This document shows positions 33,164 to 34,829 of a stretch of 64,000 nucleotides of DNA, in pieces; position 1 is the stretch's first letter, and each line of letters opens with the position of its first letter. Made by a program: the position numbers and the translations under genes. The DNA comes from Escherichia phage EC.P1: sequence record PQ657772.1; one strand, given 5' to 3'. The notes beneath the pieces were generated by a model. That model did no database searches. It was given only the letters and a program-made list of their open reading frames with translations, and was not told where the DNA came from.

Positions 33164-33619
33164 TTACAACATTTTTTGAATATGATCTACGAGTTTATAC
33201 AGTTTAGTGTTTTCATTCTCGTATTCCAAATCAACTTCAACTTTGAATTCTTCTTCAAGTTCCATGATCATTTCAATCCAGTCAAGCCAATCGAATTTAA
33301 ATTTTTCCACGACTTCACATTTAGTAAGATGGAAGTTCATTGATACATCTTTTTCGGATGCATTTTTGTCGCGACTTGTAATGAATTTGACAATTGCTTT
33401 TTCAACGTCAGTTAATTCACGAGTGCGATATTCTGGTTCAAGATACCATTCGCCATTATTGATAGCTTCCAACGAAAGTCTAAGTTCATGCATTAGTTTA
33501 TAACGATCAGTACTTTTATGGATGCGGTTAACTTCGCGATTCAGTACACGTAGTGCGTCTTTGATTTGTTCGTTTAGCATAACAATCCTCTTATTTTTTA
33601 CTGTACCATTGCATTTCAC
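33164..33619 (-). CDS. hypothetical protein with C-terminal ACP-like motif lacking the Ser
   Basis: 151 aa; FDWLDWIEMIMELEEEF resembles ACP DSLD..E.VMALEEEF with Ser replaced by Trp. Confidence 0.45.
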   Translation of the reverse strand: MKCNGTVKNKRIVMLNEQIKDALRVLNREVNRIHKSTDRYKLMHELRLSLEAINNGEWYLEPEYRTRELTDVEKAIVKFITSRDKNASEKDVSMNFHLTKCEVVEKFKFDWLDWIEMIMELEEEFKVEVDLEYENENTKLYKLVDHIQKML

Positions 33620-34829
33620 GGATATCTAATAGTACCTTCGTAGCCAACTTTATGTTTGGTCGCTTCGGTAGATGGGTCTTATGATACGCCACATTTCGGA
33701 TGTAGTCAACCTTTTCGTTGAAATAATCCATAACTTCTTGATACAACCACTTCCCGTTACGAATGTCCATCAACATAGCAGCATCCGGTCGGTGAACTTG
33801 GATGATACCAGTTTCAAGTGCTTCCTGTGCTGTATTCAGCAGCCTGACTGTATGCATTGCGTGTTTACAATCATAACCGTGGTGTGATTCAAGAATAGCA
33901 CGTTTGGCATTACGATTCTGCTTCCATTTGTGATAACTCTTACGGTTCTCACTATTTTCTTTGTATTCTTTTTCATTGAATTTTACAATGAGTTCAGGAC
34001 GAACTTTCAATTCTTCTGTAGTACGTTCTTTGTTGAAGTAACGTAGTGAACCATCAGCATTCACTGTACTTTCATTCGGGTTGATAATTACCCCAAAGAT
34101 GTTTTCACCGTAATGGATTAGTTCATATCCAGAATTGTAATTCAATAAATTGAAATCACGATCTAATACTTTATCAGTACTATAATTATGTACTAAACGT
34201 ACAAAATGATATTGTTTCAATGCTTGTGTTGAAACTAATTGTAATGAAGTATCACGCATGTATTTTTCAAAATCAATTTTTGTAGCATTGAATGGGTGAA
34301 GATTGGATTTATTCAAACGGTCAACCAAATACTGCGGGAATGTATCATACATCCATGAAAGTACTTCGTCAACTGGATGTTCTTCTAAAATTTCATTTAG
34401 TTTACGTTCAGCAATTCGTTCCTTATCGAGCCAGCCGTGGTGATTAGACATACGCTTAACCTGATTGTATGCATATCCACTGTATGAGTGTGCAATCTTT
34501 GAACTCAATAATTGCTGATTGAATGAGCGTAGATAGTCATAGATTTCAGTACTTTCTACGATGTGTTCCGGTTTAACCCATAGTGATTCAAGAATGTTTG
34601 GGTTAGCTTCAGTATACAGACTTAAGTACTGATTGATTTCATAAAATTTAGTATCTTCTTCAGAAGTATCTGAAACTTCCTTAACATTAAAAAAAGGAGT
34701 TAGGATATATTCTTTGTTTGCAAGGAAGATACCACGATAATCTGTATCACTTTCTGGTGTGCTTGTGCCATACGCCTGTGAACCTGCTAAGTGTTTCACA
34801 ATAGTTTGTTCTAGAAAATTGTTTTTCAT
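33591..34829 (-). CDS. Pol-beta superfamily nucleotidyltransferase
   Basis: 412 aa; N-terminal GSQAYGTSTPESDTDYRGIF (GS...D.D motif). Confidence 0.6.
   Translation of the reverse strand: MKNNFLEQTIVKHLAGSQAYGTSTPESDTDYRGIFLANKEYILTPFFNVKEVSDTSEEDTKFYEINQYLSLYTEANPNILESLWVKPEHIVESTEIYDYLRSFNQQLLSSKIAHSYSGYAYNQVKRMSNHHGWLDKERIAERKLNEILEEHPVDEVLSWMYDTFPQYLVDRLNKSNLHPFNATKIDFEKYMRDTSLQLVSTQALKQYHFVRLVHNYSTDKVLDRDFNLLNYNSGYELIHYGENIFGVIINPNESTVNADGSLRYFNKERTTEELKVRPELIVKFNEKEYKENSENRKSYHKWKQNRNAKRAILESHHGYDCKHAMHTVRLLNTAQEALETGIIQVHRPDAAMLMDIRNGKWLYQEVMDYFNEKVDYIRNVAYHKTHLPKRPNIKLATKVLLDIREMQWYSKK

Follow-up and report, generated by a model that had tools for sequence, protein, structure and literature searches.

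A gene of the giant Escherichia phage EC.P1 raises a simple question: what does a large nucleotidyltransferase (NTase) of no assigned specificity do in a phage that also possesses a CCA-adding enzyme? The gene lies at positions 33591..34829 of the stretch of 64,000 nucleotides that was analysed as a whole (sequence record PQ657772.1; hereafter the window), and a first-pass annotation made from the sequence had described its product as a Pol-beta superfamily NTase of unknown specificity, which might serve RNA repair or tailing, the synthesis of a nucleotide second messenger, or the modification of host targets. The specificity can now be narrowed, since the protein falls into a named family, RlaP (PF10127, "RNA repair pathway DNA polymerase beta family"), one of the candidates that the annotation itself had listed. 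Judged by sequence comparison it is the NrdC.11-like long form of this family and a homologue of T4 NrdC.11, and we regard it as probably an active enzyme that extends broken transfer RNAs (tRNAs) at their 3′ ends.

The gene itself is genuine and under strong purifying selection. Its complete coding sequence of 412 amino acids runs from ATG to TAA, stop included, over exactly the interval proposed before; the strand, on which the first-pass annotation was silent, is minus, and the plus-strand translation of the same interval contains stops throughout. The ATG overlaps the TGA stop of the upstream open reading frame (ORF) in an ATGA junction (...cttATGAaa), an AAGGAG stands 14 nt 5′ of the start codon, the following gene starts 10 nt after the TAA, and the G+C content of 35.8% is the same as that of the window. 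The window corresponds in identical orientation to 168322..232321 of Escherichia phage Ecwhy_1 (Asteriusvirus, 354,537 bp), whose protein QAY00552.1 is 100% identical to the NTase, as is a protein of phage fEgEco12. Identity is 82% to gp506 of phage 121Q and 71% to the RaK2 orthologue, with ratios of non-synonymous to synonymous substitution (dN/dS) of 0.05 and 0.14, respectively, and relatives are present in 1,096 phage records. QAY00552.1 already carries the label "nucleotidyltransferase" in GenBank, and for this gene the assignment given here is mainly a correct and more specific annotation.

Family membership is carried by two profile matches far beyond chance. PF10127 matches residues 14–131 with 63 bits against a cutoff of 23 (E 4.5e-17); this match is partial, covering profile positions 25–144 of 249, and T4 NrdC.11 and other relatives are matched equally partially. 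The phage family phrog_388, itself named "nucleotidyltransferase", matches over the full length (E 4e-75; residues 3–411 on profile positions 32–337 of 351). The NCBIfam scan gave nothing useful and the PADLOC scan gave no match, and searches of PDB sequences with the protein, with a profile of its clade and with a profile of canonical RlaPs found no relative. With a profile built from 53 homologues, the number of representative clusters retrieved is 10,225 at a threshold of E<=1e-3 and falls to 1,756 when E<=1e-30 is required. The T4 member of the RlaP family is NrdC.11 according to the preprint that characterised the family (Carruthers, Fatma & Huang, bioRxiv Dec 2025; PMC12776372), and this protein (NP_049709, 336 aa) aligns with residues 8–150 of the NTase at 29% identity (E 7e-14) and, in a second alignment, with residues 308–377 at 27% identity, both proteins having D-x-K-x-x-x-H-x-x-R in common. 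The relation is a distant one, and the middle region of NrdC.11 is about 80 residues shorter. In both phages the gene is distant from the repair genes (pseT and rnlA in T4) and has nrdG in its vicinity. Synteny with the T4 region (nrdD-nrdG ... nrdC.11 ... rI.-1 ... tk) was considered and dropped: tblastn found only nrdG and an NrdC-like thioredoxin/glutaredoxin in common and no counterpart of T4 rI.-1 or mobD in the window, and the gene order relative to transcription is reversed between the two phages.

The active site is intact. The GS...D.D signature that had been noticed near the N-terminus, GSQAYGTSTPESDTDYRGIF, occupies residues 16–35 and provides G16, S17, D28 and D30 of an N-terminal Pol-beta NTase module (residues 9–131; 34437..34805, minus strand), which is delimited by the Pfam match, by hhalign, by conservation and by an AlphaFold2 model, and which further contains the third carboxylate D59 and the segment N76-P77-N78..E81. 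Conservation was followed across 61 relatives that are 24–42% identical to the NTase and include T4 NrdC.11 as well as minimal bacterial forms. Invariant among them are G16, S17, S27, D28, D30, P77 and H326, while D59, N76, N78, E81, W302, R306, N307, R310, E314, D320, K322, R329, R347, D349 and G359 are conserved in at least 90%; the catalytic residues and the N76-P77-N78..E81 segment are likewise invariant or at least 90% conserved in the set of 53 homologues. When canonical full-length PF10127 proteins from bacterial loci are taken as proxies for the characterised Pseudomonas enzymes PfRlaP and PaRlaP, hhalign aligns residues 13–129 with a probability of 97.8% and sets D59 against D84, the third and invariant Asp of those proteins. 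The AlphaFold2 model, with a predicted local distance difference test (pLDDT) score of 91.1, consists of a Pol-beta NTase domain, with a strand-helix-strand layout in the N-terminal module, and a helical domain. Its best matches among solved folds are all Pol-beta NTases (HalB, KNTase, LinB, MNT) together with HEPN-like helical domains, and short phage NTases superpose on both of its domains. Both points by which the first-pass annotation would have its superfamily call judged, conservation of the catalytic aspartates in relatives and a predicted fold like that of Pol-beta NTases, come out in its favour, and that call holds.

Beyond the module, the remaining ~330 residues are not the unassigned helical sequence for which they had been taken: the RlaP module extends to about residue 131, a stretch at ~205–285 is predicted to be beta-rich, and residues 286–412 form a helical domain found throughout the family. 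The middle part (residues ~135–285; 33975..34427, minus strand) is a clade-specific insertion composed of a helical hairpin at ~134–200, followed by the small beta-rich subdomain. Minimal bacterial RlaP relatives of 264 and 291 residues match the NTase at ~6–140 and ~284–408 only, and the hairpin is restricted to forms of ~410 residues, being absent from relatives of ~350. AlphaFold2 gives the insertion blocks of pLDDT 84–95, and no Pfam family model matches it. The C-terminal helical domain (residues 286–412; 33594..33974, minus strand) carries W302-K-x-N-R306-N307-x-x-R310, D320-x-K322-x-x-x-H326-x-x-R329, R347, D349 and G359. Inteins tend to occupy functionally critical sites, and four close homologues (P0121, P0123, P0125, P0130) contain an element of ~330 residues exactly between D320 and residue 321, in the invariant GYD/CKHAMH (slash at the insertion point). 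The element begins with Cys1, possesses a T-x-x-H motif and two LAGLIDADG-like motifs, and ends in G-N followed by C or T, which are the hallmarks of a LAGLIDADG intein; the Pfam scan did not call an intein in it. We mark the D320 motif as important because this intein-like element inserts exactly there.

Compared with canonical RlaP, the protein shares PF10127, the G-S / D-x-D / third-Asp active site, the N..E motif and gene links to RNA repair, and it may also share the two-part build of N-terminal NTase domain and C-terminal helical domain. It differs in its length of 412 residues, with the insertion of ~150 residues and a clade-specific W-K-x-N-R-N-x-x-R helix, and in its company, which is a 5′-phosphate ligase (Rnl1) and Pnkp instead of an rtcB-rtcA operon. 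Several other memberships were considered and rejected. The class II CCA-adding enzymes (PF01743) are also template-independent Pol-beta NTases that act on tRNA 3′ ends, and they often adjoin relatives of our NTase, but they form another family, and their body, neck and tail differ in architecture from the NTase. The Pfam scan found no PF01743 (PolyA_pol head domain) in the NTase, which speaks against a CCA-adding enzyme or poly(A) polymerase, and the real CCA-adding enzyme of the window is a separate gene, as had been claimed. Hailong HalB (PDB 9dbh) is the closest solved structure in the PDB copy searched, but it shares 15% identity and no sequence-level relation with the NTase, and its activity is protein-primed synthesis of oligo-dA in partnership with the HalA channel, for which no adjacent gene is found here. 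Kanamycin and lincosamide nucleotidyltransferases and MNT antitoxins resemble the NTase in that a HEPN-like helical bundle follows their NTase domain or pairs with it, but they act on small molecules or proteins and share 3–13% identity with it; neither an MNT-HEPN nor a KNTase match exists at the family level, nor does a partner HEPN toxin. Membership of the CD-NTase / cGAS-like group was rejected too, with no PADLOC match, a Foldseek probability for CdnE of 0.04–0.12 and no effector gene nearby.

Genes of RNA repair are scattered over the genome in which the NTase resides. Outside the window, 36–39 kb from the NTase gene and on the same strand, are a gene for Pnkp (PF25109 and AAA_33; E 7e-41 to T4 PseT) and one for an Rnl1-type RNA ligase (PF09511 and PF20819; E 7e-57 to T4 Rnl1). 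The six tRNA genes of the phage also all lie outside the window. The class II CCA-adding enzyme (18799..19914, minus strand; PF01743 and PF12627) lies 13.7 kb downstream of the NTase on the shared strand and is probably its pathway partner; the GenBank entry for Ecwhy_1 calls it just "phosphatase". Searches of the phage genome found no RtcB, RtcA, Ro60 or second RlaP. A survey of jumbo phages reported that RlaP is the most prevalent NTase of this kind there and tracks with RNA ligases (PMC7824862).

Relatives elsewhere are repeatedly linked to tRNA and RNA repair genes, lying beside Ro60-RtcB-RtcA, RtcR, Pnkp, a CCA-adding enzyme or Thg1. In a Thioalkalispiraceae metagenome-assembled genome (MAG; locus L013, 1-7050), genes for RtcR, Ro60/TROVE, RtcB, RtcA and a metallo-beta-lactamase/tRNase Z-like protein are followed by a full-length relative with 36% identity, and another bacterial relative has RtcR immediately upstream. 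In Alicyclobacillus, the gene for a CCA-adding enzyme comes directly after that of a relative and overlaps it. In three phage contigs a CCA-adding enzyme with 50–55% identity to the one at 18799..19914 lies upstream of a relative (37–39% identity), separated from it by a single small ORF, and in two of the three Pnkp lies within 5 kb. These trios of CCA-adding enzyme, small ORF (154–160 aa) and RlaP relative occupy 6141-9062 of L098, 5253-8083 of L100 and 5329-8068 of L101; a homologue of the small ORF is found in Ecwhy_1 (~233,780-234,084), just beyond the window and adjoining the DNA ligase region. A metagenomic jumbo-phage locus (L102, 4641-5384) has a Thg1-like 3′-5′ polymerase gene 1.6 kb upstream of a relative that is 48% identical, and such a gene is not found at the corresponding position in Ecwhy_1.

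In bacteria the neighbour is often a second member of the same family. Of 80 bacterial loci, at least 17 (L022, L025, L067, L070, L072, L073, L088 and others) have a canonical full-length PF10127 paralogue adjoining the NrdC.11-like gene; the tandem loci include Myxococcota and Planctomycetota MAGs, and in one protein (P0259) the two types are fused. This arrangement suggests that the NrdC.11-like type and canonical RlaP are non-redundant or act together. Neighbour clustering of the 80 loci, which relied on crude ORF calls, revealed no universal partner except this second RlaP paralogue. Five NrdC.11-like proteins (P0164, P0170, P0199, P0204, P0258) carry a fused C-terminal DEDD 3′-5′ exonuclease (PF00929, RNase_T), and these fusions point to action on nucleic-acid 3′ ends.

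Assays of PfRlaP and PaRlaP indicate what such an enzyme may do: both attach one or two nucleoside monophosphates to the 3′-OH of RNA, and neither acts on DNA or protein. Their preference is for Mn2+ and for a nicked tRNA mimic, and a repaired tRNA that lacked one anticodon-loop nucleotide is better aminoacylated after their action (PMC12776372). Of the three functions offered at first, RNA repair or tailing is the one with support, from the family, this biochemistry and the gene context. The same chemistry on broken tRNAs is most likely for the phage protein because of its family membership, its intact catalytic residues and its context. The following account of what the enzyme acts on, how many nucleotides it adds, which metal it uses, in what order the steps run and what sets them off is inferred. 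G16-S17, D28, D30 and D59 would bind a nucleoside triphosphate and two divalent metal ions, Mn2+ being the choice of the characterised bacterial RlaPs. The C-terminal helical domain, which is basic and conserved (K322, H326, R329, R306, R310, R347), would shut the cleft and keep the RNA in place, and one or two nucleotides would be joined without a template to the 3′-OH of the broken strand. During infection the substrates may be tRNAs that anticodon nucleases of the host have cleaved and shortened. Once the phage Pnkp had healed the ends, the NTase would add nucleotides and the phage Rnl1 ligase would seal; the products carry a 3′-OH, suited to a 5′-phosphate ligase. The CCA-adding enzyme and the six phage tRNAs may deal with other types of damage.

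Several observations weigh against this picture. PfRlaP and PaRlaP fall in a different cluster from the NrdC.11-like branch, and the confident alignment between the NTase and the canonical proxies is confined to residues 13–129. When C-terminal slices of the NTase clade and of canonical RlaPs are compared, D320-x-K322-x-x-x-H326-x-x-R329 falls over a K-H-L-L-Y-A-Y-R helix, and the match is weak (E 0.021). The NTase also carries the insertion of ~150 residues. The tandem and fused pairs may mean that the two types differ in substrate. As for genomic setting, the NTase gene does not share an operon with those of Rnl1 and Pnkp, its adjoining genes have no known domains, and one relative lies among the DNA replication and recombination genes gp32, UvsX and UvsW. 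Finally, T4 tolerates in the laboratory the loss of a fragment that includes nrdC.11 (PMC9825161).

Part of this evidence bears on which end of the tRNA is rebuilt. The NrdC.11-like branch could perform the same chemistry at the acceptor (3′) end instead of the anticodon loop, replacing the discriminator or any other nucleotides missing beyond CCA and so letting the CCA-adding enzyme complete the repair. The three phage contigs in which a relative follows a CCA-adding enzyme and the overlapping Alicyclobacillus pair would fit such a role; the frequent canonical neighbour in bacteria suggests a division of labour, and the DEDD exonuclease fusions fit trimming and rebuilding of 3′ ends. Taken together, CCA-enzyme adjacency, canonical/NrdC.11-like pairs and exonuclease fusions suggest that the branch has a job separate from that of canonical RlaP, possibly at the acceptor end. 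However, in the characterised RlaPs the acceptor-end strand becomes less reactive once annealed into a tRNA mimic, and the 3′ end at the anticodon loop is preferred (PMC12776372). In the window the CCA gene is 13.7 kb away from the NTase, and proximity in any case says nothing on which end is served. We consider an acceptor-end role unlikely, while the anticodon-loop repair of broken tRNAs described above remains the interpretation that we favour.

A different substrate altogether is less credible still. The NTase might nucleotidylylate a protein or small molecule, by an AMPylation like that of MNT antitoxins, DrrA, GlnE or the antibiotic NTases, and so disable a defence protein of the host, for example a HEPN RNase. 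The similarity to those enzymes is at the superfamily level, at 3–15% identity, with no sequence match to their families; the bacterial RlaPs left Escherichia coli proteins unlabelled (PMC12776372), and the gene context of the relatives is RNA repair and not toxin-antitoxin. Modification of host targets, as first suggested, finds nothing in its favour beyond generic fold similarity, and we judge it very improbable. Even fainter is the prospect that the NTase makes free oligonucleotides or a nucleotide signal, like the oligodeoxyadenylate of Hailong HalB or the products of CD-NTases, for signalling or as a decoy to host defence. One version of this idea, to which we give equally slight credence, has the NrdC.11-like branch as a primer-independent or protein-primed oligonucleotide synthase akin to HalB, whose decoys would keep a nucleotide-gated defence such as the HalA channel off, with the ~150-residue insertion giving specificity. 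The signalling, decoy and AMPylation proposals have a single footing, superfamily-level fold similarity, and second-messenger synthesis is further disfavoured by the missing PADLOC match and by CD-NTase fold probabilities of at most 0.12. That the NTase is decayed or catalytically dead, with a structural or binding role only, would suit the laboratory dispensability of the T4 homologue (PMC9825161) but is hardly conceivable given that the catalytic residues are all conserved, dN/dS is 0.05–0.14 and the predicted fold is confident.

The immediate neighbours of the NTase have no known domains. The upstream ORF whose stop overlaps the NTase start (133 aa; 34826..35227, minus strand) is a conserved neighbour, 58% identical to RaK2 ORF003, which also stands upstream of the RaK2 orthologue; it has no Pfam match. 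Directly upstream of it are three tandem paralogous ORFs of 188, 173 and 169 residues (26–30% identical; 35230..36830, minus strand), again with no Pfam match, and similar triplets of paralogues occur in 121Q (gp502-504) and in the metagenomic relative L102. An HNH endonuclease gene lies downstream. A terminator-like hairpin overlapping a near-consensus sigma-70-like promoter (TTGACG-17-TATAAT) is found at 36854..36893 (minus strand), upstream of the paralogue triplet, and a strong terminator-like hairpin follows the HNH gene at 31773..31802 (minus strand). These two elements may mark the limits of a unit of nine genes, the NTase among them. Promoter-like sites in the region are not above chance (43 found against 46 expected), and because they are not enriched the proposed transcription unit is merely a suggestion. 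Elsewhere in the window, an ATP-dependent DNA ligase (PF01068; 62719..63957, minus strand) adjoins a calcineurin-like phosphoesterase gene (61908..62699, minus strand). The ligase gene extends past the window end, being annotated as 231033..232451 in Ecwhy_1, and the listed 412-residue ligase ORF is therefore an internal-start artefact. A 323-residue protein with a C-terminal WGR domain (PF05406) is encoded at 49069..50040 (minus strand).

With this assignment the gap left by an "unknown" NTase is closed: the enzyme belongs to RlaP, a family reportedly named and predicted in 2016 by Burroughs and Aravind and first assayed in late 2025. The phage branch that includes T4 NrdC.11 is a large one, comprising the 1,756 representative clusters recovered at the stricter threshold. 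The proposed role of RlaP is to restore nucleotides excised by "smart" anticodon nucleases, so that ligation gives a working tRNA. If the branch does have a job of its own, possibly at the acceptor end, one more step would join the classic T4 Pnkp/Rnl1 tRNA repair pathway.

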